The notes under the pieces: generated by a model | Database searches by the model: none | Told to the model about the DNA's origin: nothing | The model's input: the letters and a program-made list of their open reading frames with translations, nothing else | Translations under genes and position numbers: made by a program | Assembly: GCA_018303325.1 (NCBI GenBank) | Contig: JAGVYH010000003.1 | Coordinates: 1-60,976, forward strand | Origin: Candidatus Woesearchaeota archaeon | GTDB taxonomy: Archaea > Nanobdellota > Nanobdellia > Woesearchaeales > DSVV01 | DNA length: 60,976 nucleotides | Direction of reading: 5' to 3' | Part shown: piece after piece, positions 2,517 to 59,368 of the stretch | Position numbering within the stretch: position 1 is the first letter of the stretch | Layout of the letters: the number at the start of each line of letters is the position of its first letter

Positions 2517-3911
2517 TCAACCACTATATCTATACTTAGCCAGGAGAGGAGTTATCTTTCTAAACGCTTTTTGTTGTAATTGATGTACTCTCTGTTTGCT
2601 TATACCTCCTAATTCTTTTGCAACATCTTCTACTATCATTGGCTCTCCGTCCAGCCCCCAATGCAAAGAGATTAGACGTTTTTCTCTTTCACCTAATTGT
2701 TTTAATGCGCGATTAACCGCTTTGCGTAAATCATTTTCTTCTGATATATTTTCTAATATATCTAATGAGCTTTGTTCATTATTAGATATAATCTCCATAA
2801 TAGAACATTTTCTGTTATCTCCTACTGATTTATCCAACTCTAAGATATACATTAAATTTATTCTTGATTCCAAGAATAAAATTTGTTCATCATCAATACC
2901 CATTTTTTTGTATACTTCTTCTTTTTCAGGCTCTCTTCCTAATTCCTTTTTGCATCCTTCTCTTGCTCTTTTATATTCTCTGCATAGTTTATTGAAGCCA
3001 GGCGGAGTTCTTATTAGTCTGCTTTTATTGTCAATTTCTCTGCGGATTTCTCCGTCAATTATTATCCCAGCATAAACACTAAACTTCACGCCTAAACTGC
3101 CATTAAACCGTTCTATAGCTTTCATTAATCCAATATTGCCTTCCTGTATTAAATCTGTAATTTCAAGTTTTCTGGGGTTTGCAAAACCATTGTTTTCATA
3201 TCTTCTGGCAAAGTAAATAACATATCCAAGATATTGCTTGATTATATTTTCCCATGAAGACATATAATTTTTTAATAACACATTTAATTCACCTGCTTTT
3301 TCATCTATCTTGCCTTCTTTACAGCATTCTGTTCTATGATTTTTTTTATAGTTCTCAACAATACGTTCATAATAACTGTTGATAATATGCATTTTCTCAA
3401 GATATCCTGCCATTTCTGCGTATACTCTTTTTGCTCTTTTTTGTTTTTCTTCATCGCTTATTTTATCTTCTGGCTTATTTTGCGCTTCAATTCTTTCATC
3501 TTCTTTTCTTCCAATTTGTTCATCTTCTCTTCTTCTAATTATTTCATCTATTCTTTTGTCAAGTAATTTCATATTACAATAATAATTGGCAATTAATTTG
3601 TATTTTTCATTTTCACTTTTTGTATCTAACCCTGCCAGACTAAAATCTTCGTCAGGATTTGCGATTATTCTTTCAATCTCTCCAAACAATTCTTTTTTGG
3701 CATATCTGCACAAATACTCAAAAAAATTTGTTCTGCTTTGCGCAAGCTGGTGAAATAAATTATTCTCCTCTTTTCGAGAAGGTATTTTTGGAGGACCAAC
3801 TTCAGATAAATAAAGTGAAATAGAGGATAACCTATCTCTCGGCAGCTTGTTTCTATCTTCTTTTGGAGTAATGTTCTCTCTGTATTCTTTTGTGATAGTT
3901 TCGTATACCAT
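2517..3911 (-). CDS. sigma-70 family RNA polymerase sigma factor homolog (RpoD-like, regions 1.2, 2, 3, 4)
   Basis: DLIQEGNIGLMKAIERF..G.KFSVYA (region 2), IRTPPGFNKL...LGREPEKEEV (region 3), LGEREKRLISLHWGL...VEDVAKELGGISKQRVHQLQQKAFRKI (region 4). A long charged insertion sits between regions 1.2 and 2. Confidence 0.85.
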   Translation of the reverse strand: MVYETITKEYRENITPKEDRNKLPRDRLSSISLYLSEVGPPKIPSRKEENNLFHQLAQSRTNFFEYLCRYAKKELFGEIERIIANPDEDFSLAGLDTKSENEKYKLIANYYCNMKLLDKRIDEIIRRREDEQIGRKEDERIEAQNKPEDKISDEEKQKRAKRVYAEMAGYLEKMHIINSYYERIVENYKKNHRTECCKEGKIDEKAGELNVLLKNYMSSWENIIKQYLGYVIYFARRYENNGFANPRKLEITDLIQEGNIGLMKAIERFNGSLGVKFSVYAGIIIDGEIRREIDNKSRLIRTPPGFNKLCREYKRAREGCKKELGREPEKEEVYKKMGIDDEQILFLESRINLMYILELDKSVGDNRKCSIMEIISNNEQSSLDILENISEENDLRKAVNRALKQLGEREKRLISLHWGLDGEPMIVEDVAKELGGISKQRVHQLQQKAFRKITPLLAKYRYSG

Positions 3912-3971: not shown

Positions 3972-5417
3972 TTATTGCATTTGATATCCTGCTTCTTTAT
4001 ATTGCCCAAAAACAGCTCTGTCAAAAAGAGATATTTCCCATCCTTTTGTCTGGAACATACAATCTGTTTCAAATTTAGGTCTTCTCTCTTCAATATTTCT
4101 CATTACTTCAAAAATCTTATCTAAAGGATTATCTTTGATAAATCTTGGTGAAAAGTAAAGCAGAAACGGAAATTGCTCGACGTATCCATTTGAATCGACT
4201 CCTTTAAAATCTAACAAATCATAAATTGAGATTGTTCTAGCCAGAGAATAACTAATAACTGTTGGAAGTGTTTCTATTATCTTATTTGTAGCTTCTGCAT
4301 CATGTCTTGAATCAAGGAATTCATAAATTAAATTAGTTTTAGCCAGAGAACAACCAAGAACAGCTGGATGTATTTCTACTATTTTATTTGTAATTTCTGT
4401 GTCATGTCTTGAGTCGAGAAACTCATAGATAAAAGATGTTCGTTTAAGAGAATAGCGAAGAACCGTTGGACGTATTTCTACTATTCTATCTGTAGCTTTT
4501 TGTTCATGTCTTGAGTCAAGAAATTCATAAATTGAATTAGTTCTAGCCAGAGAATAACTAATAACTGCCGGAAGTGTCTCTACTATTTTATTTGTAGCTT
4601 TTTGTCCATGTCTTGAGTCAAGGAATTTATAAATTGAACTTGTTCTTTTAAAAGAGCATCTAAAAACAGAAGGCTGTGTTTCTACTATCTTATTAGTAGC
4701 TTTTTGTTCATGCCTTGAGTCAAGGAATTTATAAATTGAAGTAGTCCTTAACAGAGAATAACCAAGAACTGTTGGAAGCATTTCTACTATTTTATTAGTC
4801 GCTTTTTGTTCATGCCTTGAATCAAGAAAATTATAAATTGAATTAGTTCTAGCAAGAGAATAACTAAGAACAGTGGGATGTGTTTCTACTATTTTATTAG
4901 TCGCTTTTTGTTCATGCCTTGTGTCAAGAAAATTATAAATTGAAATTGTCCTTGCAAGAGAACAGCGAAAAATAGCAGGATGTGATTCTACTATTTTATT
5001 TGTGGCTTCTGCGTCATGCCTTGAGTCAAGGAATTCATAAATTGAACGTGTCCTAGCCAGAGAATAGCCAAGAACAGTTGGATGTATTTCTACTGTTCTA
5101 TTTGTAGTTTTTTGTCCGTGTCTTGAGTCGAGGAATTTATAAATTGAACGTGTCCTAGCCAGAGAACAGCCAAGAATACTTGGAAATGCTTTTATTATTT
5201 TATATGCAGCTTCTGTGCCATGTCTTGTGTATAAAAAGAAAACTCTTGTGTGGCTCTCTTCTGAAATATCTCTTGAACAAGCAAGAATGAAGTCTAAACT
5301 AAAGCGTGTAGTATCATAGTTAACTTCACTGGCAAACTTAACTAGTGCTGCTTTTTTTCGCGCAGTTAATCCTTCTTTTTCATTAATTTGATATACTATC
5401 TGTTCTAATTCTCTCAT
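3972..5417 (-). CDS. helical repeat protein with ~10 tandem 34-aa repeats, mTERF-like
   Basis: Repeat consensus SLARTxSIYxFLDSRHxxKATNKIVExxPxVLxY. The P-x-[IV]-L-x-[YC]-S-L ... [FI]-L pattern resembles mTERF motifs; a TPR-like helical repeat is the alternative. Confidence 0.6.
   Translation of the reverse strand: MRELEQIVYQINEKEGLTARKKAALVKFASEVNYDTTRFSLDFILACSRDISEESHTRVFFLYTRHGTEAAYKIIKAFPSILGCSLARTRSIYKFLDSRHGQKTTNRTVEIHPTVLGYSLARTRSIYEFLDSRHDAEATNKIVESHPAIFRCSLARTISIYNFLDTRHEQKATNKIVETHPTVLSYSLARTNSIYNFLDSRHEQKATNKIVEMLPTVLGYSLLRTTSIYKFLDSRHEQKATNKIVETQPSVFRCSFKRTSSIYKFLDSRHGQKATNKIVETLPAVISYSLARTNSIYEFLDSRHEQKATDRIVEIRPTVLRYSLKRTSFIYEFLDSRHDTEITNKIVEIHPAVLGCSLAKTNLIYEFLDSRHDAEATNKIIETLPTVISYSLARTISIYDLLDFKGVDSNGYVEQFPFLLYFSPRFIKDNPLDKIFEVMRNIEERRPKFETDCMFQTKGWEISLFDRAVFGQYKEAGYQMQ
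4150..5190 (-). repeat. coding tandem repeat, 102-bp period, about 10 copies
   Basis: Recurring ...catg(t/c)cttgagtc(a/g)aggaa(t/a)t(t/c)ataaattgaa... blocks every 102 nt on the plus strand. Confidence 0.8.
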
Positions 5418-9682: not shown

Positions 9683-9869
9683 GTATGTGCATAGCTTTTT
9701 CAAGGAGGATACTGCTGCCTCAAATTTGTTTTCTTAGCAGTTTTACTCGTAAGACATCAGGTAACCGAAAACAAAATATATATTCATTGCAACTGCAGAG
9801 AATAAATTATAAAGTTTTCGGCGAAGAAAACTGGCAGTAGCATAATCTCAATGAGAGCTATGCGCATAC
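9683..9869 (+). mobile_element. T-family MITE, copy T1
   Basis: Inverted arms gtatgtgcatagc...ggatactgctgcc / ggcagtagcataatc...gctatgcgcatac. Exact 8-bp direct repeat ggtttaat on both flanks (9675..9682 and 9870..9877). Confidence 0.8.
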
Positions 9870-10786: not shown

Positions 10787-10847
10787 GCACTTTTGTATAT
10801 ACAAATGGAATTAATTTGTTCGAAAACTAATTCCATTTAATATATAC
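10787..10847. repeat. F hairpin, copy F1 (loop gttcgaaaa)
   Basis: aaatggaattaattt-gttcgaaaa-ctaattccattt, flanked by cttttgtatatac / aatatatac. Confidence 0.6.
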
Positions 10848-10869
10848 ACCTTGATTTTATAATAATAGA

Positions 10870-15678: not shown

Positions 15679-16893
15679 CTATCTTACACTATCATATTGT
15701 TTAATCAGTGCCCTAATGCTATCAACGAAATCATATACTAACAAGATACTTTCTTCTGGTGTGTTCTTTGTTAGGTCTGGTTTGATTTTTCTTTTCACCA
15801 CAGAATAATCCCATTTTAATAATACAAATTCTGTTTTTCCTGACTCAAATGGGCTGTTCATGAAACTACCACTGTAGTTCTCAGATAAGTATGAAACTAT
15901 TTCTTGTTTGATGGAATAATATAAGTGATTAAACTTGCCCCCCCAATCACCTTCCAAATTATTTCCATACTTATCTACTCCATTTTTCTTCCCGACATTA
16001 AAATCATCTATTTCTATCACTAGCTCACAAGCCCAACTATCTAACAAGGATACTAAGTCATTTCCTTGATAATGTTCATCATCACCAACTATTTTTATTT
16101 TGATTGATCCATGTTTATTTTCATGATTAATTTTGTGAGAAGAAATAAGATACATAATACGAGCGTATAGTTCGTTCACATGATCTTCCGTCATCATAAT
16201 ATCTCCTGCATCAAGTAAGCCTGAAACCCCTGTTAGTTTATATTCAATAGCACTAATCTCTACATATGCAAGTTCATCATTTATAATTACGCCTTTTACA
16301 TATATAATATCATCTAATTTAAAACTCATTAACTCTTTTTTGTTACAATTATTTTCTGAATTGTTCTCATCTTCTCCACAGTCCAATACAAAATAATGTA
16401 ACTCTGAATTCCAGATACCACCAGATAAACCAAATGCATTTAGAACATGTGTGGCTTCTTCAAATATTTGATCGGTGAATCGTTTTTCACAATTTTCGTT
16501 CTGACAACAGTCCATATCATCCATATAGTCAAACTCGCCACAATAGGTTGATACAAATGATTGAAATGAGTTAGGGATTCCATAATACTCAATCCTCGGC
16601 GCAAATCTTTCCAATGTTTCTTCTCTAGAAAGAACTTCTTGTTGTGTTATCGTTGGTTGTGTTTGTGGTGAGATGTATATTATACTGCTGGCTAACGCAG
16701 CAATACCTGCACCAACCAGCGCGCCAATCTTCCAGTAATTTTTATCTTTCTTTCCAGCAAGCTCTTTAATCCTTTCAGGAGAATAAGTTAATCCTCTGAC
16801 TCCGCCATCGCAGGTATTCCACGCATGGTTGCCTCTGACTATTTCTGTGAGTTCTACATCTCTTGGTTCATGTGGATTTTGTTTGTCAGCCAT
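15679..16893 (-). CDS. handle-family paralog 1 (404 aa): conserved N-terminal handle + TM + divergent C-terminal domain
   Basis: VRGNHAWNTCDGGVRGLTYSPERIKELAGKKDKNYWKIGALVGAGIAALA, then a unique acidic Cys-containing domain. Confidence 0.7.
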   Translation of the reverse strand: MADKQNPHEPRDVELTEIVRGNHAWNTCDGGVRGLTYSPERIKELAGKKDKNYWKIGALVGAGIAALASSIIYISPQTQPTITQQEVLSREETLERFAPRIEYYGIPNSFQSFVSTYCGEFDYMDDMDCCQNENCEKRFTDQIFEEATHVLNAFGLSGGIWNSELHYFVLDCGEDENNSENNCNKKELMSFKLDDIIYVKGVIINDELAYVEISAIEYKLTGVSGLLDAGDIMMTEDHVNELYARIMYLISSHKINHENKHGSIKIKIVGDDEHYQGNDLVSLLDSWACELVIEIDDFNVGKKNGVDKYGNNLEGDWGGKFNHLYYSIKQEIVSYLSENYSGSFMNSPFESGKTEFVLLKWDYSVVKRKIKPDLTKNTPEESILLVYDFVDSIRALIKQYDSVR

Positions 16894-17030
16894 TGTGTAA
16901 ATGGAATATAATTATCTGAATCATAAAACTTACCTTGGGATTTTTTATGAAAATGAAGGAATCACGGATTAAATTGTGATTTTAGTGAATGCTTGTTAAT
17001 AATGTCCCTCAAATGTTCTAAACCAATCTA

Positions 17031-17210
17031 TAGCAAAGGCACTAAATTTTCGTAATTAATGATGCCTTTGCTATATATAGTAAGTGACGTAAATTTTTAT
17101 ACAAATCGTGTCACTTACTATATTTGTCGGACATAACACTTGGTATAAATATTTATGTCCGACATTATACGTGGACTTTAACAAAAAAGATACGAATATT
17201 AAAGTCCACC
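17031..17210 (+). repeat. H hairpin-module array, left copy (four hairpins)
   Basis: Four modules: tagcaaaggc/gcctttgcta, tagtaagtgac/gtcacttacta, tgtcggacataa/ttatgtccgaca, gtggacttta/taaagtccac. The reverse complement is near-identical to 23473..23702. Confidence 0.85.
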
Positions 17211-17213
17211 CCT

Positions 17214-18731
17214 CTAATACAATTCAAGGTCTTTTGTATATACTGTTAATGGTGGAAACTTCATATTCCATTTAAAATACCGATCTCTTGATTTGTCATG
17301 CCCATATTTTAATAGTGTACTAAACACATCAACAAGTCGGTATAACAATAGTGCGTTATTTTCAGGCGTATTTTCTATGTCACCATAAATTATTATTGTC
17401 TTCTCCTCTGAGACAAAACTAGATAATGTTTCTTCTTTTTTACTCCTTCTTCTTGCCTCTTGAATATTTTTTCTTATCGAGTGTTCTGCATCAAATACAG
17501 GTTCTAACATGGTTTCAATAATTTCATACATTATATCAACTGCTCCAGTTACTTCATCATAATAATAAATTATACCTAATTTAGATAATGCACTATTTAT
17601 ATTCCACATTAGTGTGAGTCGCATAGAAAAAAGTCCCCGTCGAATGCTTGACCATGAGTTTACGTCATCAATTATGTTACAATCAGCCCATCTATCATAC
17701 TTAGAAGGTAGATCATGAGTTATTCTACAAACATTATGTTCAAACCACCCATCATATGGCATATTTATACTGAAGCTATAACTACTTGCAAAAATCTGTG
17801 TTTTATTAACCTCATCAGTCTGTTTTGCATTTGATTCTTCAAGTGTCACTTTCAGCATTCCGTGTAATGGTAATAATTTGAAATGATAATAACTGATTAT
17901 TGGCCCATATATTTTAAAATTATCTAATTCTTTCTTGTTGTCCATTATGTACTGTTTTTCTAAATATAGTTCATCTATGGTATGCTTTACAGCTCTTATT
18001 TCCAAGTAAGGCTGCACTCCTTCTTTTATTACACCCTTAACACTTAGTATGTCTTCCAGTGGCAAACTTAATTTTTCATTCTCTTTGCAAACATCACCTT
18101 CTTCAGATGATTTGCATTCATAAGATAAGCAATGTATCTCTGGAATATATCTCTTTTCAAAGAACCCATTTTCATATCGTGGAATATATTCGACTTCATC
18201 ACTATTTGAAACCCACCCTTTATAACAAAATTTTTTTAATAATGAGGGCAATTTATCAGTATAATCTCCTTTGTACTTCTCACTTATCTTCTTTACCTCT
18301 TGACTATCCAAGTCTGTTATGTAGTCCCACTCATTGTTTTTACTTAATGTATTTTTTTCAATTCCTTCAGTATAATCCTCTTCAACCCCATAATATTCTA
18401 TTGTTGGATCAACATTTTCCAATATATTCTCAAGAGAAACTGCCGTGGTTTGACTCTGTTGAGATAACTTTGTTATTTCTAATGTTGCTTTAGATGCAGT
18501 AAAATATAATATTCCAACAAGCAATGTAGCAACCCCACCACTCACCAACGCTCCAATCTTCCAATAATTCTTTTTATGTTTTTTTTCAGCAAGCTCTCTA
18601 ACTCTTTCAGCAGAATAAAGTAATCCTCTGACACCGCCATTGCAGGTATTCCATGCATGGTTGCCTCTGATTCGTTCGTCTGTTTTGACTTTATCATCTA
18701 TGGTTTGCGGTGATTGTGTTTCATTTGGCAT
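17214..18731 (-). CDS. handle-family paralog 2 (505 aa)
   Basis: IRGNHAWNTCNGGVRGLLYSAERVRELAEKKHKKNYWKIGALVSGGVATLL + divergent domain. Confidence 0.7.
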   Translation of the reverse strand: MPNETQSPQTIDDKVKTDERIRGNHAWNTCNGGVRGLLYSAERVRELAEKKHKKNYWKIGALVSGGVATLLVGILYFTASKATLEITKLSQQSQTTAVSLENILENVDPTIEYYGVEEDYTEGIEKNTLSKNNEWDYITDLDSQEVKKISEKYKGDYTDKLPSLLKKFCYKGWVSNSDEVEYIPRYENGFFEKRYIPEIHCLSYECKSSEEGDVCKENEKLSLPLEDILSVKGVIKEGVQPYLEIRAVKHTIDELYLEKQYIMDNKKELDNFKIYGPIISYYHFKLLPLHGMLKVTLEESNAKQTDEVNKTQIFASSYSFSINMPYDGWFEHNVCRITHDLPSKYDRWADCNIIDDVNSWSSIRRGLFSMRLTLMWNINSALSKLGIIYYYDEVTGAVDIMYEIIETMLEPVFDAEHSIRKNIQEARRRSKKEETLSSFVSEEKTIIIYGDIENTPENNALLLYRLVDVFSTLLKYGHDKSRDRYFKWNMKFPPLTVYTKDLELY

Positions 18732-18818
18732 ATTTTAAACCTAATCTCATTATTATTAATTAAAAATTAGATCACAAAGAATCTCTTTTTTTGTGTACTT
18801 CTTCTTATCAGTTCTTAA

Positions 18819-20432
18819 TCACCACGCCGTACCGCCGGTTGGATGGCATGTTTTTTCTGTAAGTTCTCCCAATGTTGTTTCCAAGAGGGGAGTATTAATA
18901 TAAGGTTCTAATGCTTGGTAAACTTTAAATAATTCTACATTTTTCTCTATTTCAGTATCAAATACTTGTACACACATTATTATCTTTTCGAGATATCCAA
19001 ATAGTTCTTCTATTTCAGTTTGGTTTTTAAGTTTTGAGAAAAAACCAAGATAGCTTTTTATAAGATTATTTGTTCTTAGATATGGTAAAACCTTTTCAAT
19101 ATGTTTGAAGATTGCGGAAACAGTTTCTCTATCTTTTTCGCTGTCATCTACACCATCTAAGTATGAATGTGCTATACTATACATAATAGAAACCATTTCA
19201 GGATTGTCTGTGCTTACTCTAATATCATACATAATTATATCATCATGTAAATTTAATATATTATTATAAATATATGTTCTAAGCAAATTTGCTAGTTTAT
19301 GAATATCATCAATCCTTTCCTCCTCAGCAAGTGTCGTCTTGCCTGTAAATACATGCTCTCTTCTTTCAGTAGTCCATCTAACAAGTTCTAATTCATACTC
19401 GATGTCACCATGTTTGTTCACATCTCTTGCTATTTTCTTCTGAAGTCGACAAGCCATTTTTTCAAGTGCAGTAAATGATTTCCAATAATCTTCCTCGCAA
19501 TACTTAAGTTCAATATTGTATTTTTTACATTGAACAATCAATTCTTCTTTACTCATGCAACTGCCAACTCTTTTATCCAATTTTATATCTTGTTTAGAGT
19601 CATCATTATAAACTAATCTGAATATTATTTTTGGAAGAGTGCTATCGTCAATAAGATAATATCCTTCATCTTTTTCATCTCCTTCTGTTTTTTGTAGTGT
19701 TAATGATGAGAAAGCCATAACAAGCGCTAAATCTTTTAGTTTGCCGTAATCTATTTTAATATCATACTCTTTTTTAATCCACCACACAAAATTAGGCTCA
19801 TTATCTAAAACATGTTGTGAAAAATCAGTTAAAGTATAATCATCTTTACCACCAACTATAATTACCTTGCCCTGAATTGATTCATCATATTTTATTACTC
19901 TTTCATCAAAAGTAAGTGTAACCGAAGAAGAACTAATTGAATCGTTATTAATAATACCAACAACATCTAATAAATTATTAAGAGAAGGTGTGATGCCTGC
20001 ATCACAAAACAGACCATCACCATTCCCAACATATCCTCTTTCACAAAATGATTCTAAGGCAGAATTAATCTTTTCTCTTACTTCTCTTAAGGTAAGACCT
20101 TTTATTACTTTACCTTTATATTGTTCTATATTACTAATTTGTTCAACTGGTGGTTCAATCTTAGACCAGCCCTCTCTTTCATCTGTTGATGTCAAGAATA
20201 ATATTGAAGTAGTAGCTACTGCAGTAAACACAGCAATCCCACTCACCAGCGCCCCAATCTTCCAGTAATTCTTTTTATGTTTCTTCCCAGCAAGCTCTAT
20301 AACTCTTTCAGCAGAATAAAGTAATCCTCTTACACCACCTTCAGTCTTTTCATGCCATGCAAAGTTATTTCTAGCTCGCTCTTCTGTGTTGACTTTCTCG
20401 TCGAGAGTTTGGGTCAAGTTTTTGTTTGACAT
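18819..20432 (-). CDS. handle-family paralog 3 (537 aa), degenerate handle
   Basis: ARNNFAWHEKTEGGVRGLLYSAERVIELAGKKHKKNYWKIGALVSGIAVF + divergent domain. Confidence 0.7.
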   Translation of the reverse strand: MSNKNLTQTLDEKVNTEERARNNFAWHEKTEGGVRGLLYSAERVIELAGKKHKKNYWKIGALVSGIAVFTAVATTSILFLTSTDEREGWSKIEPPVEQISNIEQYKGKVIKGLTLREVREKINSALESFCERGYVGNGDGLFCDAGITPSLNNLLDVVGIINNDSISSSSVTLTFDERVIKYDESIQGKVIIVGGKDDYTLTDFSQHVLDNEPNFVWWIKKEYDIKIDYGKLKDLALVMAFSSLTLQKTEGDEKDEGYYLIDDSTLPKIIFRLVYNDDSKQDIKLDKRVGSCMSKEELIVQCKKYNIELKYCEEDYWKSFTALEKMACRLQKKIARDVNKHGDIEYELELVRWTTERREHVFTGKTTLAEEERIDDIHKLANLLRTYIYNNILNLHDDIIMYDIRVSTDNPEMVSIMYSIAHSYLDGVDDSEKDRETVSAIFKHIEKVLPYLRTNNLIKSYLGFFSKLKNQTEIEELFGYLEKIIMCVQVFDTEIEKNVELFKVYQALEPYINTPLLETTLGELTEKTCHPTGGTAW

Positions 20433-20464
20433 TATTTATGTGCATTATTTAATTTTTATATTAT

Positions 20465-22051
20465 TCACTCTATTTTTGTATGTGTTGTTTGTTTGTACAA
20501 TAATTTTAGTATCTCTTTATTATTCATCTCTTTGTAAAGCAAAAAGATAAACTCTAATGGTGTTCTAAAAGCATCAGCCAATTGCATCATTAATGACGTG
20601 TTCTCTTCAGTTGACAGTGTAGGATTATGTTTAATTATAATTTCCTTTGTGTCTGCTTCAAATGCCATAAAAGTTCTTGTAACAACTCGTGTAGGATTAT
20701 TCTCACATTCGTCAGGAAAAAAGGAGTAAGTAAATGGGTAAACTTCTTCTGCATTCAGTTTTGGTTTGTACACATCTCCATTTGGATCATATTCAGCAAT
20801 TTTCTTTATTAAAAAAGCAGGTCCATTATTATAATCGAATCTAGATGCAGGAATACTAATTCTTTGCTCATCATCACTTTGAAAGCTTTTAAAATAAAAA
20901 TCTATTGCAATTAATCTATAAATTGTTTCATCATCATACATATATTCATCAGTTATACCATCATAATACGTATCCTCATCAGTTGTATCATTATCTATTT
21001 TCATCCATGTAAAGCCGTAAGGAGTTAGATACTCAACATACCTGAATTCAATCCTTGCTTTTTCTAGCTGTTCAGAATTTATTTCATCTCCTAAATTAAG
21101 TTCTAATTGTACTTCTAATCCAATAATTAAATCAATAAAAAAGTTAGAATCACTTAGAACTTCAGAAACAGTACGGGTTCTTTTCTGATACGATGTTTCC
21201 TCATTATCTCTTGTAATCTTACCCATTGTCTTACCTATAACACTTTCTATTTTTTCTAGTTCATCCAAAACTTGTAGTTCTGCGATAGTGTTATCAAATA
21301 TCTCTTCTTCGTATTTATCTATAATTAAGTTAGGTTCACCTTTCTTTAATTTAAGAATTAATCTTGGTGTATATCCTTCATCAAATTCTACCCTCACATC
21401 TTTAATATCACTTAAATCGTTATCCACTATTTCTTTCAGCTCTTCAGTTACACACTCTTTCTCAAAGCTAACGATCACCTCGCTAGTTTTTTTATTATAT
21501 GTTTTGTTTGGTTTAGTTTCATATTTTAAACAATAGTTTTCAAGACAAGTTATCTTCATATCATCAGAAGCACTTACAAAACAAAAATCATTCATTACAT
21601 TTTCTATTAAATCATCTATTCCAAGCAAACTATCGGTTCCTAAACTAGAATCAAACCAACCTTCTACTTTTTCTTTTAAACCATCTATTGCTAGTAGATT
21701 ATATGCCCCATTGAAGTCAAACCAACTAATTCCACGATATGTGTCAACAACATTAAATGGTGTTTCTACTTTAATTTCTTCTTTTTCAGGATTTTCAACA
21801 ATTATTTCAGGATTCGGGGGAGCAAGCGGCGAAGTAAAATATAATAATCCAGATACTATCGCAGCAATCCCACCACCAACCAACGCGCCAATTCTCCAAT
21901 AATTCTTTTTATGTCTCTTCTCAGCAAGCTCTTTAATCTTTTCAGCAGAATAAACTAATCCTCTGACTCCACCATCGCAGGTATTCCACGCATGGTTGCC
22001 TCTTCTATTCTCTTCTACTTTTTGTTCAGAATTTTCTTTTTCCTTTGCCAA
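20465..22051 (-). CDS. handle-family paralog 4 (528 aa)
   Basis: RRGNHAWNTCDGGVRGLVYSAEKIKELAEKRHKKNYWRIGALVGGGIAAIV + divergent acidic domain. TTG start with agggg upstream. Confidence 0.65.
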   Translation of the reverse strand: MAKEKENSEQKVEENRRGNHAWNTCDGGVRGLVYSAEKIKELAEKRHKKNYWRIGALVGGGIAAIVSGLLYFTSPLAPPNPEIIVENPEKEEIKVETPFNVVDTYRGISWFDFNGAYNLLAIDGLKEKVEGWFDSSLGTDSLLGIDDLIENVMNDFCFVSASDDMKITCLENYCLKYETKPNKTYNKKTSEVIVSFEKECVTEELKEIVDNDLSDIKDVRVEFDEGYTPRLILKLKKGEPNLIIDKYEEEIFDNTIAELQVLDELEKIESVIGKTMGKITRDNEETSYQKRTRTVSEVLSDSNFFIDLIIGLEVQLELNLGDEINSEQLEKARIEFRYVEYLTPYGFTWMKIDNDTTDEDTYYDGITDEYMYDDETIYRLIAIDFYFKSFQSDDEQRISIPASRFDYNNGPAFLIKKIAEYDPNGDVYKPKLNAEEVYPFTYSFFPDECENNPTRVVTRTFMAFEADTKEIIIKHNPTLSTEENTSLMMQLADAFRTPLEFIFLLYKEMNNKEILKLLYKQTTHTKIE

Positions 22052-22073
22052 TTAATAACCCCTAAATTTGTTA

Positions 22074-23414
22074 TTACGCTTTTTTACTTCTTTTAGAATC
22101 TCTTATATATCTGGTCCAATCATGCCAAGTATTTAGCCTTCTGAATACTGTAAATAATCTATCAACTTCTGGGCTTTCTTCTTTTATCAAATGGATATCA
22201 GAATAATCCTTTTCTTTTGGAGGAAGATTTTGTTTATATCTGAATACTCTCATTTTATCTTCTTTTGTAGTTAAAACTAAATTATATCCCTCTTGTCCTT
22301 TTTCATTTTGTCCTTTTTCGCTTTTATATTCCCTCCCAAAAAAATAATTAACAAAATGTATTGGACCTTGTGGTGGATAGTGGCTGCTAAAACAAGAATT
22401 TACAAATAATCCTCTTTTTGTTTTAGCTGCCATCACCAAAACATAATCATAAACTAATTCATAAAGAAAATCTCTCAATTTTACTTCTTCTTCACTAAAT
22501 ATTTCTTCTATAATTCGGTCAGGTATTTTTTCATCTTTCTTATCATCTTTAGTATAATCTTCTATACTTTTCACTGATTCAGGTTTAAACCATGGAACAC
22601 CAAACACACCTTCAATCACAAGATATTTATTACCTGTTTTATTGCCTTTTTTATCCACTTCTTCTGCATCAACAAGAATAGCAACAATTTGTGCTGGAGC
22701 ATTTTGTGTTTTCTTAAATCCTTCTGTTATTTTTGGTGTGATAAGAAGATAGTGTATATGTTCATCAGCACAATCAAGCATTGCAGCTCTCATCTCATAA
22801 TCTCCATTGAATTTACAAGTATTAACATCATGATAAAGATTTCTCCATATAGAATCTGAAAACATTACTCCATATCGCTGATTTCTAAATAGTTTTTCAA
22901 CAGAAGCAAAAACACAAGAATTACTATCTTTTGGCAATGTTTTATTATAATTCTTAATAAGGTAACATATTAAACGCAAAGCGTCAATTGGATTTCCTTC
23001 CTTTTCAAGAAAATGTTCACCAATATTTTTAAATTTCTCACTTTTTATAATTTTATATCTATCTTTTGTTATTTCCACACATGTTGAGGTTGTTGTTGGC
23101 TCAAGGACAACTTCATTAAGAAATCTTAAAATATTTTCATTTGGGCTGCTTTTTTCTTTAAATATCTGCTTTAAATATTTGGAGTCACTTCCAAAATAAA
23201 ATTCTTGGCATAATACTAATACATTTCCTGCAAATTCTTCATATGTATAATCAAATTTAATTTTTCCTATTTTACCAATTTCTTTTATTGGCTCTATACT
23301 CGCTTTACAGAATTCAACAACTCGTTTAAAATTAGAACCATTAATACCACCAAGGCTAGCTACTAATTCAGGATTTTCTTGTATTTTAGCTTGAACAATA
23401 TCTTCTATTCCCAT
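22074..23414 (-). CDS. hypothetical soluble protein (446 aa), first gene of the paralog cluster
   Basis: Long intact ORF 22 nt upstream of paralog 4; no TM segment, no recognised motif. Confidence 0.6.
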   Translation of the reverse strand: MGIEDIVQAKIQENPELVASLGGINGSNFKRVVEFCKASIEPIKEIGKIGKIKFDYTYEEFAGNVLVLCQEFYFGSDSKYLKQIFKEKSSPNENILRFLNEVVLEPTTTSTCVEITKDRYKIIKSEKFKNIGEHFLEKEGNPIDALRLICYLIKNYNKTLPKDSNSCVFASVEKLFRNQRYGVMFSDSIWRNLYHDVNTCKFNGDYEMRAAMLDCADEHIHYLLITPKITEGFKKTQNAPAQIVAILVDAEEVDKKGNKTGNKYLVIEGVFGVPWFKPESVKSIEDYTKDDKKDEKIPDRIIEEIFSEEEVKLRDFLYELVYDYVLVMAAKTKRGLFVNSCFSSHYPPQGPIHFVNYFFGREYKSEKGQNEKGQEGYNLVLTTKEDKMRVFRYKQNLPPKEKDYSDIHLIKEESPEVDRLFTVFRRLNTWHDWTRYIRDSKRSKKA

Positions 23415-23472
23415 CTACCCCACCCCACAACTATTTATAATAATTGTAATAATTATAATCCTTACACATAGT

Positions 23473-23702
23473 GGTGGACTTTAATATTCGTATCTTTTTT
23501 GTTAAAGTCCATGTATAATGTCGGACATAAATATTTATACCAAGTGTTATGTCCGACAAAGGTTGGAAAGCAAAGCTTTCTAACCTCTCAGGAATCTCTG
23601 ATTCCCGAGATATAGTAAGTGACACGATTTGTATAAAAATTTACGTCACTTACTATATATAGCAAAGGCAACGTTAATTACGGAAATTTAGTGCCTTTGC
23701 TA
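23473..23702 (-). repeat. H hairpin-module array, right copy (six hairpins), inverted relative to 17031..17210
   Basis: Same four modules in reverse complement, plus a 51-bp insert carrying two extra hairpins (ggttggaaagc/gctttctaacc and tctcaggaatc/gattcccgaga). Confidence 0.85.
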
Positions 23703-24874: not shown

Positions 24875-25028
24875 TAAACTTGTGAAGTGCGCACTCCAAA
24901 AAGAAAGTTTGGTGTTGCATTTTTAAAGCCTGACACTCATTTTTATAAACTTTTTAGTTTTAAACTTTTTAGTTTATAAAAAAGATGGCAAGATTGCATA
25001 TAATAAAACATCTAAATCTTCAATAAAC

Positions 25029-25252
25029 GTATTTGTTTAGTTCTTGGCATGTCCAACACGTTCACAAAGATAAAATAGTAAGTCGTTAGTCGTAGGTCGT
25101 TTGTCGTCAGCTGTTTTTTACGTTTTTCCGTTTACGACTAACGACAAACGACTTACGACAAACAGTTTAATTAGTGAGACGGTGGACTGCGTCCCACAAA
25201 CGAGTAGAAAGCAGAAAAAAAGATGAAAAAAAGAAATCAGCTAAACAAATAC
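25029..25252 (-). mobile_element. P element, copy P1 (core of GTCGTNN heptamers)
   Basis: Ends gtatttgtttag...ctaaacaaatac. Flanks caataaac / caataaaa (7 of 8). Inner conserved boxes ttggcatgtccaacacgttcac and gacggtggactgcgtcccacaaacg. Confidence 0.7.
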
Positions 25253-25396
25253 CAATAAAAGATTTATCTAAACCTAAATGAGCTGTCACAAAGTCAATAA
25301 ATTTCAAAAATCCAAAAACTTTATATATCTCTTAACTTAGGGTTTATATAATATAATAATTAATATAATACATTAAATTATAAATAGGTCATCATA

Positions 25397-39457: not shown

Positions 39458-39555
39458 TACCACATATACTTATTGCGTATCTTATTATCACTTTCAGATT
39501 AATAAGCGCTATTTTGAACCGAAAAAGCGAAAGCTTTATAAATATGTGACTATAC

Positions 39556-39654
39556 TATCGAGAAACATGTCGGTTATAATACGCATATTATCGAGAAACA
39601 TGTCGGTTATAATACGCATATTATCGAGAAACATGTCGGTTATAATAACCCAGC
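39556..39654 (+). repeat. 33-bp direct tandem repeat, 3 copies
   Basis: tatcgagaaacatgtcggttataatacgcatat repeated head to tail; the last copy diverges at its end. Confidence 0.85.
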
Positions 39655-39662
39655 TATGAATA

Positions 39663-39824
39663 GTATGTGCATAGCTCTCATAGGGATTATGCTACTGCCA
39701 GTTGCAGTGGCGGAAATCATGCTGTAATAATGCTGGATTTCCGTTCCCTAAAAGATAAACAGAGAAATGCCACTGCAACAAATTTGAGGCAGTAGCATAA
39801 TCCTTGAAAAAGCTATGCACATAC
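39663..39824 (-). mobile_element. T-family MITE, copy T3 (inverted orientation, different interior)
   Basis: Same terminal arms as T1/T2. Exact 8-bp flanking duplication tatgaata (39655..39662 and 39825..39832). Confidence 0.8.
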
Positions 39825-39859
39825 TATGAATAATACCTTAAACGAAGATGTGAACGAAT

Positions 39860-48192: not shown

Positions 48193-48425
48193 GTATGCGC
48201 ATAGCTCTTTTAAGGAGGATGCTACTGCCTCAAATTTGTTTTCTGAGCAGTTTTATTCGTAAGATATCGAGTGGCCGAAAACTTATAAGATATACATTAT
48301 ATACAAAAGTGATTAATTTTCGAACAAATTAATCACTTTTGTATATATTTGTAGAGAATGAACAATCGTGTTTTCGGCGAAGAAAACTGGCAGTAGCATA
48401 ATCCCAATGAGAGCTATGCGCATAC
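48193..48425 (+). mobile_element. T-family MITE, copy T2, carrying a nested F hairpin (48299..48346)
   Basis: Arms gtatgcgcatagctc...ggatgctactgcc / ggcagtagcataatc...gagctatgcgcatac. No flanking duplication visible. Confidence 0.7.
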
Positions 48426-48461: not shown

Positions 48462-49487
48462 TTACGGTGTAATAACCACTAATGTTCCAATTCCTTTTCC
48501 AAATTGTTCGTCTAATAATCCATAAAGTTTTTTAATTTCTTGATTATTCATTCTTATACAACCATAAGATGCATCAGTTCCTATTGTGTCTTGTAGTCTT
48601 GTAACAGAGCCATGAAATGCAATTTCATCATAAGGTCTTCTGTTTTTTGGAACACCAACAGATATCATTCTTGGACCATAACGAGGACCAATTTTCTGTA
48701 ACTCTTGGTCTTTAGCAGATTTGTAATAAGCAACAGGATCTTCAACCATCCTATCCACCCAAAATATTCCTTCAGGCGTGGTTCTGTCTTTTGCATTTAA
48801 TCCTGCAATTGTTCTTCTCTTGCCTTTAGTCTTTCCAATCGCAATCTCATAAACATTGTCTGGTTGTTTTTCTTGATTATCTCCGTGAGTTTCATCTTCA
48901 CTTCCAAAATTAAAATAATACAGATAATATGAAGATTTGCATTTTGTTGTGCTTCCACCTTCTTTCTCACTAGGTTTATCTTTTCTGCACGTTTTTGACT
49001 TATCGACAATAATAACTGCTTTTGGCAGAAACCTAAATCTCTTATAATCTTCAGAATAACTCTGAATGAATTCTTTAAAATATTCATCCATAAATCCTTC
49101 ATGTATATACTTTTGAGGAATAGATGCGAATAAACTGTTTAGATGTTCTTCTAAATGTGAGCGATACTCATCTTTGCCTGTATCATCGCTTGTAAATAAA
49201 TCGTTAGTAAATTCGCTGGTAAATGACGCTGTTTCTCCCAAAACTTCTTTCCCAAATTTTTTCACTCTTTCGCGGAAATCAACAACAACATCTAAAGAAT
49301 CAGTTGAGGTATCAGTTTTATTCATTCCTTTTTGCGAACCTTTTGAACCTTCTTGATGTTTCGAACCTCTTTTTTCTGTGTTTTTATGATGAATTGGTGT
49401 TTTTTCAATACTATCATTATTAATATCAACAGGATTACCTAAGATAAATGCCAATGACAGCAATGCAGGAATTATCTTAAACTTCAT
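48462..49487 (-). CDS. secreted L,D-transpeptidase (YkuD) domain protein
   Basis: Signal peptide MKFKIIPALLSLAFILG. C-terminal IAFHGS...GTDASYGCIRMNNQEI matches the YkuD H...S.GC.R catalytic motif. Confidence 0.75.
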   Translation of the reverse strand: MKFKIIPALLSLAFILGNPVDINNDSIEKTPIHHKNTEKRGSKHQEGSKGSQKGMNKTDTSTDSLDVVVDFRERVKKFGKEVLGETASFTSEFTNDLFTSDDTGKDEYRSHLEEHLNSLFASIPQKYIHEGFMDEYFKEFIQSYSEDYKRFRFLPKAVIIVDKSKTCRKDKPSEKEGGSTTKCKSSYYLYYFNFGSEDETHGDNQEKQPDNVYEIAIGKTKGKRRTIAGLNAKDRTTPEGIFWVDRMVEDPVAYYKSAKDQELQKIGPRYGPRMISVGVPKNRRPYDEIAFHGSVTRLQDTIGTDASYGCIRMNNQEIKKLYGLLDEQFGKGIGTLVVITP

Positions 49488-50045
49488 TAAAACACCCATA
49501 ACATTAAATACATCAATAAAAATAACTAATAACTAATAAAACAAAACTATTAAACCAATCAGAAGAAACCATTTTTCTTTTAAAAAGTTTGTTACTGTTG
49601 TTATTGAGTTGCAGTGTTCTCTCGACGAGAGAATCTTTGTATATTTTTGTCACAAAAAGGTGATAGAATTTATAATTTGTTACTAAATTACATCTTTTTG
49701 AATAATGTTTATACTCTCTTCAAATTTTTTCTTTAATTATTATGTGATAACTTAAGTTTACAACTGATATTTAGAGTTTACGGTTGAAAACCATAATATT
49801 TTAATACATCTTACTATCTTTATAATTTTAATTCAGTTTATAATTTGGATATACTCAAATTCCTTGATTTTCGAACAAACTAATTCCATTTAATATATGT
49901 ACTAGTACTATGACAACTTAATGTTGTAACATATTAATACAGTGTACCTTTTGGGTATTATGCAGTTATTTGTCTGAAAATTAAATTGTCAAGCTACTAG
50001 TAATCATAAATATTGCACATTATGGGACAGAAGGGAGTGATCAAA

Positions 50046-51096: not shown

Positions 51097-51189
51097 ATCT
51101 TCTTATTTCTTCTTTTTATTTTTTTAAGTTTATTTTTTGATTTATTATCTAGTTTTTAACCTAATTTCTTAATACATTTAACCCCACTT

Positions 51190-51385
51190 TCTCACTCTCA
51201 GCACGTTTGTGGGCGCAGCCACCGTCTCATGAAAAATAAAAATAGGTGCTAGGTGCTAGTGGCTAAGTGGGTGCTGGCTTCTAAGTGCTGGGTGCTAGTT
51301 ACGATGAATTATCGCTGCCAGCACCTAGAACCCATCACCTAGTTTTCATAGTGAACCGTGGCTGCGCCATAGAACGAGATAAATC
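51190..51385 (+). mobile_element. P element, copy P3 (AGGTGCT-type core, degenerate ends)
   Basis: cacgtttgtgggcgcagccaccgtctcatgaaaaa ... ggtgcta-type hairpin with the same loop (agcgataattcatcgtaac) as P2 ... ttttcatagtgaaccgtggctgcgcc. Confidence 0.65.
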
Positions 51386-52680: not shown

Positions 52681-52860
52681 CTTTCCAACCACAACTCGTT
52701 TGTGTGCGAAGCCACCGTCACATGAAAAGAAAATAAAGTAAGATAGTAGGAAGGTCAGATGGTTTGATGGAAACGACTTATTTCCGTCGTGCCGTTCGTA
52801 GTACCTTCAGACCATCAAACCATATTACCATCTTACCTTTTTTAGTGAACGTGTTGCAAA
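52681..52860 (+). mobile_element. P element, copy P4 (GA[AT]GGT octamer core), truncated at its right end
   Basis: ctcgtttgtgtgcgaagccaccgtcacatgaaaa ... core near-identical to P6 and P8 ... ttttttagtgaacgtgttg. Ends 1 nt before the PAC2 stop codon. Confidence 0.65.
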
Positions 52861-53714: not shown

Positions 53715-53939
53715 GTATTTGTTTAGCTGATTTCTTGTTTCCGTTCTCAATCTTCTTCTTAATTTCCTTTTTTTCTCACAATCACTTTTTCCGCTCTCAA
53801 CACATTCCAAGGACGCAGTCCCTCGTCTCATGATTCTATTTTTTTAAAGTTTTTTTTAAGTTATATACTAAAAAGGTAAACTAAAGCCTAAACTAAACTT
53901 CATGAGAAGGGTGGCTGCGTCCAGGAACTGAACAAAAAC
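53715..53939 (+). mobile_element. P element, copy P5 (complete ends, AT-rich degenerate core)
   Basis: gtatttgtttagctgatttc ... ccgctctcaacacattccaaggacgcagtccctcgtctcatga ... catgagaagggtggctgcgtccaggaactgaacaaaaac. Flanks attaaatc / attaaatt (7 of 8). Confidence 0.7.
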
Positions 53940-53968: not shown

Positions 53969-54139
53969 TTAAATTAAACCCTTACCTTTTCTATCATCTG
54001 CTTTAACTTCTCGCCTGTATTTCGCATATTTATCCTCAGGAGAGTATTTTGGGGGCTTTGTTTCGATAGTCTTTTCGCCGCAACACTCTTTCTTTAGTGT
54101 ATATTTATTGCATTTCTGGCATTTAAGTATATGCTGCAT
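53969..54139 (-). CDS. nop10: H/ACA RNP protein Nop10
   Basis: MQHILKCQKCNKYTLKKECCGEKTIETKPPKYSPEDKYAKYRR matches the archaeal Nop10 zinc ribbon and KPPK[FY]SPED..KYRR motif. G-rich RBS before ATG 54139. Confidence 0.85.
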   Translation of the reverse strand: MQHILKCQKCNKYTLKKECCGEKTIETKPPKYSPEDKYAKYRREVKADDRKGKGLI

Positions 54140-54231
54140 AAGTAACCCCCCTTCTATAATTATAATAAATATATACATCCATAAATAAGATTAATATTTA
54201 AAGATGTTATTTAAATAGTTTTTCTTATTGA

Positions 54232-54384
54232 GTATGTATTAAGCCTGCCCTCATTTTGTCAGCTTTGCTATCATATCTCGTAAGACTATCAGGAAAGCGA
54301 AAACCATCAGTAAACTCAAGTTCCTTTGCTGTGTCTTAATTAATCAGGTTTTCGCCAAAGCTGACTGGCAGGCTTAATACATAC
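54232..54384 (+). mobile_element. T-family MITE, copy T4 (different arm sequence, same internal boxes)
   Basis: gtatgtattaagcctgcc ... ctcgtaagactatcagg..cgaaaac ... gttttcgccaaag ... ggcaggcttaatacatac. Exact 8-bp duplication cttattga (54224..54231 and 54385..54392). Confidence 0.8.
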
Positions 54385-54411: not shown

Positions 54412-54695
54412 TTATTTGTTTAGATAATGTTTTGTATCTTAATCTTAATTCGGTTTCCCGCTCTTAATCCGTTTGTGGTGCGCAGTACACCGTCACATGA
54501 AAAAAAGGTAAGAAGGTTTGAAGGTCAGATGGTTTGATGGCAGCGACTTATTTCCGTCGTGCTGTTCGTAGTACCTTCAGACCATCAAACCATATTACCA
54601 TCTTACCTTTTTTAGTGAACTGGTTGGACATGCCAGGAACTAAAAAAAACTTAAAATTATTGAACAATGGCTTCGCCCAAGAATGAAACAAAAAC
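54412..54695 (+). mobile_element. P element, copy P6, plus an extra solo right-end segment
   Basis: ttatttgtttagat ... cccgctcttaatccgtttgtggtgcgcagtacaccgtcacatgaaaaa ... octamer core ... tagtgaactggttggacatgccaggaactaaa, then ttgaacaatggcttcgcccaagaatgaaacaaaaac. Ends 15 nt before the gyrB stop. Confidence 0.7.
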
Positions 54696-56989: not shown

Positions 56990-57231
56990 TTTATAAGCTG
57001 TAAAAGCGCAGAATTTGAAGGTTATAAAGCTTGAAGGTCTGAAAGCTCGAAGGTGCGCTTTAGGGGTCACACTTTCAAGCTGTCAAGCTTTCTAACCTTC
57101 AAGCTTCTAAATGCTGTCAAGCTTTCTAACTTTCAAACCATCTTACCATTTCTTCATGAACGTGTCCAATCAGGTAGGAAATAAAGAAATAAAACTAATG
57201 AACGGGCTGTGCCTATGAACGAAACAAAAAA
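56990..57231 (+). mobile_element. P element, copy P7 (TTGAAGGT/CTTCAAGC-type core, degenerate left end, duplicated right end)
   Basis: gaatttgaaggttataaagcttgaaggtctgaaagctcgaaggt ... ccttcaagcttc ... catgaacgtgtccaatcaggtaggaaataaa ... atgaacgggctgtgcctatgaacgaaacaaaaa. Confidence 0.55.
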
Positions 57232-59201: not shown

Positions 59202-59229
59202 GTTCCTCTTTTTTAATTGATTTTTTTTC

Positions 59230-59368
59230 GCACACAATTCGTTTGTGGGCGCAGCCACCGTCTTATAAAAAAGGTCAGATGGTTTGATGGCAGCGACTTA
59301 TTTCCGTCGTGCCGTTCGTAGTACCTTCAGACCATCAAACCATATTACCATCTTACCTTTTTTAGTGA
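59230..59368 (+). mobile_element. P element, copy P8 (both ends truncated)
   Basis: cacaattcgtttgtgggcgcagccaccgtcttataaaaa + a core near-identical to P4/P6 + ttttttagtgaat. Confidence 0.65.

Follow-up and report, generated by a model that had tools for sequence, protein, structure and literature searches.

The window analysed here, the whole stretch of 60,976 nucleotides from Candidatus Woesearchaeota contig JAGVYH010000003.1, has a G+C content of about 33% and contains eight copies of a family of short elements, called P. All eight are intergenic and lie at or within a few bases of the coordinates at which an earlier note on this DNA had placed them. The region near gyrB also encodes Nop10 and a PAC2 protein; P6 ends 16 nt from the gyrB stop codon, and the distance from P4 to the PAC2 gene is 1 nt. 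Two ORFs of the window, one sigma-70-like and one YkuD, are oddities, and no tRNAs were found in it. P1 and P2 are on the minus strand relative to P3 to P8 (Table 1). The density of P in the window is about 130 elements per Mb. Few of the intergenic spacers between 51 and 59.4 kb are without one, and six consecutive spacers between 51.1 and 59.4 kb are occupied, which suggests either local hopping or a tolerant region. Orientation with respect to neighbouring genes, at 11 vs 6, has no significant bias.

Table 1. Coordinates of the P copies, their parts, and the sister MITE copies in the window
Feature	Position	Strand	Description
P1	25029..25252	-	Complete element, 224 bp
P1 right-end TIR	25029-25040		Read on + strand
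P1 right-arm module RA1	25040-25065		
P1 A-type core	arms 25078-25110 + 25134-25163		GTCGTNN heptamers
P1 left-arm box	25171-25217		
P1 left-end TIR	25241-25252		
P1 target-site duplication	25021..25028 + 25253..25260		CAATAAAC and CAATAAAA, 7/8 match
P2	31497..31726	-	Degenerate TIRs AAATTTGTTTAG / GAAACAAATAA
P2 right-arm module RA1	31509-31534		
P2 G-type core	arms ~31541-31581 + 31587-31627		AGGTGCT heptamers
P2 left-arm box	31644-31688		
P3	51188..51385	+	Without outer left arm and TIR; G-type core, 91% identical to P2 core; RA2-like right module
P3 left-arm box	51188-51234		
P4	52681..52860	+	C-type core (GGTTTGAT-like octamers); right arm cut by 43-bp deletion in window, deletion absent from L007 and L099 (same population)
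P4 left-arm box	52690-52727		
P5	53715..53939	+	Complete element; two CCGCTCNCAA boxes
P5 TIR	53715-53727		
P5 left-arm box	53787-53833		
P5 F-type core	53834-53898		AT-rich, no hairpin
P5 right-arm module RA2	53904-53928		
P5 flanks			ATTAAATC / ATTAAATT, 7/8 match
P6	54412..54695	+	TIR-like TTATTTGTTTAG
P6 left-arm box	54454-54502		
P6 C-type core	54504-54610		
P6 right-arm module RA1	54615-54640		Followed by second, RA2-like module and GAAACAAAAAC
P7	56990..57231	+	5'-truncated, without left-arm box
P7 D-type core	57010-57153		GAAAGCTN/GAAGGTNN octamers
P7 right-arm module RA3	57158-57192		Followed by RA2-like module
P8	59224..59368	+	C-type core, 98.9% identical to P6 core; without right arm after TTTTTTAGTGA
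P8 left-arm box	59224-59270		
Sister MITE copy	9683..9869		TIR GTATGYGCATAGC; perfect 8-bp duplication GGTTTAAT (+ strand)
Sister MITE copy	39663..39824		Perfect 8-bp duplication TATGAATA at 39655-39662 + 39825-39832
Sister MITE copy	48193..48425		No clear duplication
Nested TATA-flanked small hairpin	48298-48347		At centre of the preceding sister copy

The flanks of the copies are homologous. A left-arm profile matches seven of the eight at E ≤ 3 × 10−6 and has no other match in the window; P7 is without the left arm and retains right-arm modules. The same profile also matches the right arms of P in the reverse direction, which shows the two halves to be imperfect inverted repeats of each other. 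In the window, the motif ACACGTTTGTGGG is present 5 times, where 0.55 would be expected, and the family is also recovered by MAFFT and self-BLAST of the window.

About 70 distinct copies were catalogued from the window, from 28 JGI contigs of Rifle groundwater, and from one Woesearchaeota MAG, JACQSP01. They are 139 to 324 bp long, below the limit of about 500 bp usual for MITEs, and contain no ORF. The window proteins are present on many Rifle (Colorado) groundwater metagenome contigs, and the 28 JGI contigs were found with a longer P pattern. The JACQSP01 loci come from a scan of a genome collection with the left-arm pattern, which yielded about 35 stretches in that single MAG, labelled Candidatus Woesearchaeota. 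The MAG originates from Northern California groundwater, and the matches of the scan outside it are chance matches in GC-rich bacteria. In viral contigs, the left arm had a single chance match, in GC-rich coding DNA, and the A-type core string had none. Rfam, searched at gathering thresholds and at E ≤ 1, returned only sub-threshold matches of two cores to plant miRNA precursors, which is generic hairpin noise. All of these sequences are short-read metagenome assemblies, and the loci are consistent across independent assemblies.

Termini, arms, and a sister family

Complete P copies have TIRs of 12 to 13 bp, GTATTTGTTTAGC, with ends reading GTATTTGTTTAG(C) / (G)CTAAACAAATAC that are degenerate or lost in truncated copies, and the ends by which a P-family transposon would be recognised are GTATKTGNNTAGC. 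The target duplication is 8 bp long and consists of variable AT-rich sequence. Among 15 complete copies, the two 8-bp flanks agree at 7 or more positions in 11, P5 and L033 included, and at all 8 in four. As a null, mismatched left and right pairs reach 7/8 in 0.5% of cases, and shifted registers around the P ends give background only. Duplications are found around copies with A, C, E, F, G, and H cores (core types are described below), which indicates that whole elements with different cores have transposed. P is a MITE family with all of the defining features apart from a known autonomous partner. That is how the earlier note had read it, from conserved ends, GTAT termini, and an 8-bp duplication. 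The 7/8 flank matches it had pointed to at P1 and P5 are borne out, as instances of a general 8-bp target duplication.

A complete P copy, read from its outer end inwards, starts with the TIR, after which come a T-rich stretch, where the CCGCTCNCAA box is present in one to four copies (the box also takes the form TTYCCGCTCNCAAY), and a small conserved hairpin. In the left arm, this hairpin is GTGGGAC-GCA-GTCCAC, after which come CGTCTCATGA and then the core, and the conserved left-arm string is CGTTTGT-GGGAC-GCA-GTCC(A)C-CGTCTCATGA. To the 3' side of the core there is TCATGA or TAGTGA. Between this and the inverted TIR are one to three right-arm modules, every one of which contains a small hairpin in opposite orientation. 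The right-arm modules are RA1 (GTGAAC..TTGGACATGCCAA..GAAC), RA2 (GAGACGGGTGGCTTCGCCCAGGAAC), which mirrors the left box, and RA3 (GAACGTGTCCAATCAGGTAGGAAATAAAG). Taken whole, P1 and P6 fold tip to tip, with z = −6.5 for P1 and z = −3.7 for P6, which together with the reverse profile matches bears out the proposal of imperfect inverted repeats.

The left-arm hairpin has compensatory variants, GTGAGAC/GTCTCAC and GGTAC/GTAC, as well as joint loss of an A-T pair (GGGAC..GTCC to GGGC..GCC) and wobble changes. These were taken directly from the copies, the MAFFT alignment having misplaced the paired indel. There is a hint here that the single-stranded form of this hairpin, as DNA or RNA, may matter.

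The window also has three copies of a sister MITE, which is probably the T family of the earlier note. Its TIR, GTATGYGCATAGC, has 10 of its 13 bases in common with the P terminus, and two of the three copies have perfect 8-bp duplications, so it is plausible, as had been proposed, that one absent transposase serves both families. The search for an autonomous element covered 466 kb and found no TIR pair 0.45 to 6 kb apart, a degenerate TIR also being tried, and no multi-copy ORF. Pfam found no transposase among 20 window proteins. Since no transposase with P TIRs was found in the 466 kb, we can only infer the mobilising enzyme. IS66 elements typically have TIRs beginning GTAA, often GTAAGCG, with an 8-bp duplication and a DDE transposase, TnpC. 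P and the sister family have the same duplication length, and their GTATTTG and GTATGCG resemble GTAAGCG, but the fourth terminal base differs in both and no TnpC was identified. By this analogy, an IS66-type origin of the P and sister ends might be followed as a lead.

Core modules and their replacement at fixed loci

P cores come in at least 7 periodic hairpin types and one AT-rich type that is not a hairpin, type F. The hairpin types are built of the units GTCGTNN (A), GGTAAGA (B), GGTTTGAT (C), GAAAGCTN (D), TTCGTNN (E), AGGTGCT (G), and GACGTNN (H). Both arms are significantly periodic in every hairpin type, at 7 nt in A, B, E, G, and H, and at 8 nt in C and D, and the description of core arms as short tandem arrays is therefore upheld. 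A small conserved central hairpin lies between the array and its complementary array; the two are often unequal in unit number and imperfect mirrors, and unit number varies among copies of one core type. Types A and H differ by one concerted change per unit, GTCGT vs GACGT. G/T-richness of every 5' arm was tried as a rule and dropped on account of the E-type core, which breaks it. F-type cores are 45 to 80 nt long and are found in about half of the roughly 70 copies, including P5. The AT-rich cores have little or no hairpin potential, with fold z from −2.3 to +0.6.

Against dinucleotide shuffles, seven of the eight window cores fold better (z from −2.6 to −8.7), the exception being that of P5 (z = +1.4). 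Contrary to the earlier note, then, a long hairpin is not present in every core, and neither do the cores differ completely between copies: the eight window copies have five core types, one common to P2 and P3 (91% identity) and another to P4, P6, and P8 (92 to 99%). Core types are also common to the Rifle organism or organisms and JACQSP01, at 85 to 95% identity. Instead of being hypervariable, the cores are a small library of discrete modules. Strain-level length polymorphism of the kind that slippage would produce had been suggested as a check, and no core length polymorphism was found among 6 to 7 independent contigs of the same population. The P1 locus is identical in six contigs and the P3 to P8 region in two or three, the sole strain-level difference being the P4 right-arm deletion in the window. 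Slippage may account for differences in unit number within one core type.

A deep divergence of JACQSP01 from the window, indicated by an absence of long blastn matches, was rejected, since the loci cover other regions and the blocks of JACQSP01 that are orthologous to part of the Rifle contigs are 85 to 92% identical, with proteins at 84 to 99%. Orthologous P loci were compared in only six pairs. Five of these keep both arms, and the core type differs in four of the five, with flanks and outer arms 90 to 97% identical; at some loci, the arm-hairpin variant or a right-arm module differs as well.

In the pair L027/L098, the gene flank (93%), outer left arm (92%), and right flank (97%) are kept, and so is ATATTTGTTTAATA, a TIR variant specific to this locus. 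One of the two has an A-type hairpin as its core where the other has F-type AT-rich sequence, the cores being 41% identical and in effect unalignable. An A-T pair in the arm hairpin is gained or lost, and two right modules stand against one. In L025/L111, arms of 90 to 93% identity enclose an A core vs an H core. In L081/L092, the flanks are kept and the core is A vs F, with the left side also different, while L041/L108 keeps the flanks and left-arm box around a B core with a nested small hairpin vs a G core. The core type F is kept in L032/L107, where the right module is RA2 vs RA3. At a second locus of L032/L107, only the right arm is kept, the left arm and core having been replaced by a small TATA-type hairpin.

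L025 and L027 are different loci of one genome with cores that are 91% identical and have the private variant GTAGTTAG in both. Their orthologues carry H and F cores, respectively, which argues that a core has spread between resident copies. P6 and P8, with nearly identical cores (Table 1), have left arms that differ at about a quarter of positions. L009, orthologous to the P1 locus, has an A-core P element in the opposite orientation about 45 bp away, adjoining the same conserved promoter-like sequence as P1, which points to repeated insertion into the same spacer. Interiors are replaced at fixed loci while the ends are kept, and the suggestion to that effect in the earlier note is now seen at orthologous loci of two related genomes.

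The periodic hairpins are not confined to P. A-type and B-type hairpins occur alone in intergenic DNA without P arms, and the same hairpins occur inside Q, another conserved, structured element, where again the interior is replaced and the outer stems are kept. A 24-nt string, ACGACAAACGACCTACGACTAACG, is common to hairpins inside and outside P. The copy L018 is a chimera with the 5' end of Q joined to the 3' end of P. Small hairpin units are nested inside the P copies L041, L059, L095, and L106, and P also has nested arrays of small TATA-flanked hairpins, which insert ahead of CGTGT and leave no duplication. With the same hairpins present outside P, periodic hairpins are not a property of P alone; they are a genome-wide module class carried by P, not a product of P.

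Explanations for the core replacement

We think it probable that P is a non-autonomous DNA transposon, a MITE, of a Woesearchaeota-like (DPANN) archaeon from groundwater, with core exchange through ectopic recombination or gene conversion between copies. The whole element moves through an 8-bp staggered cut, such as DDE transposases make; the transposase would act in trans and is probably the same enzyme that moves the GTATGYGCATAGC family. After insertion, the copies would not evolve independently. The arms are 80 to 90% identical across copies and so offer the homology that ectopic recombination or gene conversion needs; such exchange would carry cores, arm-hairpin variants, and right-arm modules between resident copies. 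Judging from these patterns, exchange through the conserved arms is the most likely cause of replacement. Conversion would explain the interior clustering of linked differences, the variable tract ends, which at times take in the arm hairpin or the right modules, and the Q chimeras, in a pattern drawn from six orthologous pairs. It may be speculated that the long hairpins stall replication or break, and that repair from another copy makes the centre change fastest. A host role, as terminator or RNA structure, would likewise be speculation and is not needed for the data. Counting against the explanation, besides the failure to find a transposase in 466 kb, is the hint of selection on single-stranded structure in the left-arm hairpin, since a plain double-strand DDE model has no need of it.

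A bolder idea, to which we give little credence, is that the periodic hairpins are a distinct self-propagating module class in these DPANN archaea, made or moved by a dedicated process. It might be that the hairpins home to palindromic elements and settle at their centres, or that short units are added from a template and then copied by fold-back, either of which we regard with the same doubt. If this were true, P would be the first carrier recognised for a new kind of nested module in archaea, mobile or hypermutable, and the hairpin modules would be colonising P elements, the Q element, and bare intergenic DNA.

As an alternative account of the swaps, slightly less credible again, tiny mobile or self-propagating hairpins would home into P, Q, and AT-rich intergenic DNA, and a swap would be an insertion or replacement. 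The A and B hairpins found without P arms and in the unrelated Q, ACGACAAACGACCTACGACTAACG being an example of what they have in common, are as expected from this, as are the replaced interiors within kept outer stems in both P and Q and the other small hairpins nested in P. However, the hairpin module has no terminal signature, target duplication, or constant boundary, and in P the AT-rich core is replaced by the hairpin, not interrupted by it. Arm-hairpin variants and right-arm modules also change along with the core, and recombination through the arms fits that better than precise insertion does.

A different proposal, which we consider improbable, is that P elements are domesticated units under selection, as terminators or insulators, mRNA 3' structures, or protein-binding arrays, with cores that diversify by slippage and compensatory change. 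The filling of nearly every spacer from 51 to 59.4 kb and the proximity to stop codons, as in P6 at gyrB and P4 at PAC2, would suit such a role, and there are T-runs after hairpins on both strands. Compensatory variants in the arm hairpin, the differing unit number within a core type, and the concerted change per unit between A and H fall on the same side. Against these stand the lack of a significant orientation bias, the half of the copies that have no hairpin, and the common truncated copies, among which are P3, P4, P7, and P8, cut in various ways. Orthologous loci, moreover, switch between unrelated core types, and slippage cannot do so.

There is very little probability that P belongs with REP/BIME or IS200/IS605-type (PATE) repeats and that a tyrosine transposase, HUH or RAYT-like, recognises the arm hairpins and moves it as single-stranded DNA. 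Arm hairpins with compensatory changes beside CGTC, in arms that are inverted as in REP doublets, do give it an appeal, but P has TIRs and an 8-bp duplication that REP and PATE families are missing, and comparison of ORFs over 466 kb revealed no RAYT or TnpA gene. The P arm hairpin has a stem of 5 to 7 bp, a 3-nt loop, and CGTC on its 3' side instead of at the 5' head as in REPs, whereas in the CGTC families among the CGTC- and GTAG-tagged REPs that have been described, the stem is 8 to 9 bp and the loop 4 to 5 nt (PMC3733652).

Least probable of all is that the core replacement arose falsely when short metagenome reads were assembled across repeats: P copies do disturb assembly, being often at contig ends, but an interior swap with both unique flanks kept needs two compensating mis-joins, and arms of 80 to 90% identity are far below what a graph crossover at k = 127 to 141 needs. 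Independent assemblies, up to six of them and made from different samples, also agree base for base at the window loci.

Some named classes of element were also considered and rejected. C/D-box and H/ACA guide RNAs, ORB repeats of replication origins, retron msd, and CRISPR have no matching boxes or context here, and the target duplications are inconsistent with them. Integron attC sites follow each cassette ORF singly, in one orientation, with R and L boxes and no target duplication. P occurs in both orientations (11 vs 6) among housekeeping neighbours (gyrB, Nop10, PAC2) with its 8-bp duplication, and attC was rejected on those grounds.

On the recombination reading, P has some wider bearing. 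DPANN genomes are tiny, yet spacers beside core genes such as gyrB and Nop10 are filled with P. The family is a checkable case of dispersed mini-transposons as a recombining population, its fixed insertions swapping interior modules within about 10% genome divergence, and it informs repeat-driven rearrangement and regulatory turnover in streamlined genomes. P copies break contigs and thereby affect the quality of MAG assembly and binning, and the findings bear on MITEs as lineage or host markers. They also flag a class of palindromic mini-satellite, with the origin and spread of its 7-8-nt periodicity unexplained, and possibly a new structured RNA family near P.

Comparison with known systems

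Among the nearest known systems are the prokaryotic MITEs, such as Correia/NEMIS of Neisseria, Nezha of cyanobacteria, and SM1-type elements of Sulfolobus, which P resembles in being small, non-coding, multi-copy, and intergenic, and in having TIRs, a fixed-length duplication, a long hairpin fold, and a transposase in trans. P differs in conserving a structured, modular arm of about 60 to 100 nt on each side beyond the TIR, in having an interior of at least 8 alternative cores exchanged at fixed loci, and in having no known cognate IS. A 2024 MITE census ranks a Woesearchaea genome with the archaea of highest MITE density (PMC11602168).

The BIME/REP doublets (REPINs) of Proteobacteria share with P an intergenic mosaic of inverted short palindromes with variable linkers that folds into a larger hairpin, but they are without TIR or target duplication, and their mobilisation is ascribed to RAYT tyrosine transposases, with a linked RAYT gene. 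A REP is a palindrome of 20 to 40 bp whose 5' end has an unpaired GTAG or CGTC head. IS200/IS605 PATEs likewise have no TIR or duplication; they have sub-terminal hairpins and insert beside a fixed tetranucleotide, as against the TIR and variable AT-rich 8-bp duplication of P.

Foldback (FB) transposons are eukaryotic and have inverted arms of tandem sub-repeats, in numbers that vary by copy, that snap back into a hairpin. The tandem sub-repeats in inverted arms are all that they share with P: FB units are terminal, whereas those of P are central, between unique conserved termini of 60 to 100 nt, and the transposase is another. For cyanobacteria, Mazel in 1990 and Elhai in 2008 are said to have described heptameric STRRs and small dispersed repeats nested in hairpins. 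These are like the P cores in their 7-nt tandem intergenic units and in that tiny repeats nest in palindromes with hairpin potential preserved; they differ in being bacterial, with other units, generally no complementary array, and no place as a MITE core.

In the NIMEs of Neisseria, RS segments lie between dRS3 repeats, which are targets of a phage integrase, and the pneumococcal BOX has the form boxA-(boxB)n-boxC without an 8-bp duplication. As in P, conserved ends or junctions flank alternative or repeated interiors, and recombination produces strain mosaics. Both are bacterial, have no sequence relation to P, and are without palindromic cores of 7-8-nt mini-satellites.

The earlier note knew of no described prokaryotic MITE in which a micro-repeat hairpin interior is replaced while the ends are kept. 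Literature searches found no published description of the P family, and to that extent the claim stands; it has to be qualified in that mosaic repeats with exchangeable interiors are known in bacteria as BIME, NIME, and BOX. P is a modular archaeal MITE with probable recombinational core exchange, with exchangeable modules such as those of BIME, NIME, and BOX.

A conserved element beside P6

Next to P6, a window copy of the P family of MITEs (8-bp target duplication, exchangeable core), there is a conserved structured element that we call Q, with the layout GYCTGCCAGTCARCTTTGGCGAAAAC ... GTTTTCGCTTCC..TATAGTYTTACGA ... TAGCAAAGYTGACAAATTGRAGGCAGRC and at least 7 copies in related loci. One stem covaries as GCCTGCC/GGCAGGC versus GTCTGCC/GGCAGAC, a further one as CAGCTTTG versus CAACTTTG, and Rfam has no match for Q. 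At loci L012 and L037, an A-type periodic hairpin, the P core type built of GTCGTNN heptamers, is found in place of the Q interior. Q is possibly a structured RNA family of a new kind, or else another mosaic repeat.

Features of the window, with forward-strand coordinates
Feature	Position	Strand	Remark
Sigma-70 ORF	2517-3911		bacterial-type regions 2, 3 and 4
Tandem 102-nt (34-aa) units	4219-5227	-	~10 copies, 77-80% identity; within 481-aa ORF 3972-5417
Five paralogous genes in a row	15679-23414		404-537 aa
YkuD ORF	48462-49499		L,D-transpeptidase YkuD domain
Palindromic TTTATAAACTTTTTAG motif and TATA-containing stretch	24937-24985, 25296-25340		flanking P1
Small-hairpin arrays	1693-1809, 10794-10848, 17031-17213, 23470-23702, 48298-48347, 59520-59618
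33-nt tandem repeat, near-perfect	39552-39647		2.9 copies, 98% identity; directly before the MITE copy 39663-39824, on its upstream side
Second MITE family	9683-9869, 39663-39824, 48193-48425		TIR GTATGYGCATAGC
Q, ~155 nt	54229-54384	-	between Nop10 (53969-54178) and P6

Genes of the window and the spacer around P1

Apart from the sigma-70 and YkuD ORFs, both on the minus strand, the contig looks archaeal, with Nop10, PAC2 and relatives labelled Woesearchaeota. The five paralogous genes lie on the minus strand and have C-terminal regions conserved among them by self-BLAST, and the two tested against Pfam (15679-16893 and 17214-18731) have no match there.

Both sequences flanking P1 are nearly identical in the orthologous spacer of the related MAG JACQSP01 (L009), where the upstream gene is not the same as in the window. 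The TTTATAAACTTTTTAG motif and TATA stretch probably serve the 771-aa gene as promoter or regulatory elements.

Small-hairpin arrays and strain-level differences

The arrays consist of units of ~45-60 nt, each with a 10-14-bp stem of differing sequence flanked by TATA or TATAG, and they are also nested in P copies outside the window (L041, L059, L095 and L106). In 2 cases they sit before the CGTGT of the P right arm, the conserved 3' part of the element, and lack a target duplication; therefore they insert by a mechanism other than that of P. In the JGI contig L004, the sequence of window 17031-17895 is joined directly to 23610 onward, and the junction runs through the small-hairpin repeat found at both window sites (17031-17895 and 23470-23702). 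These repeats have given rise to a polymorphism here, either a rearrangement or a deletion. Relative to L007 and L099, contigs from the same population, the P4 right arm has 43 bp deleted at 52856/52857, the only strain-level difference seen in ~10 kb.

A second MITE family

In 2 of its 3 window copies the second MITE family has a perfect 8-bp duplication, and one copy contains a nested small hairpin. Its interior is not the same from copy to copy; like P, it follows the theme of conserved ends and a variable interior.
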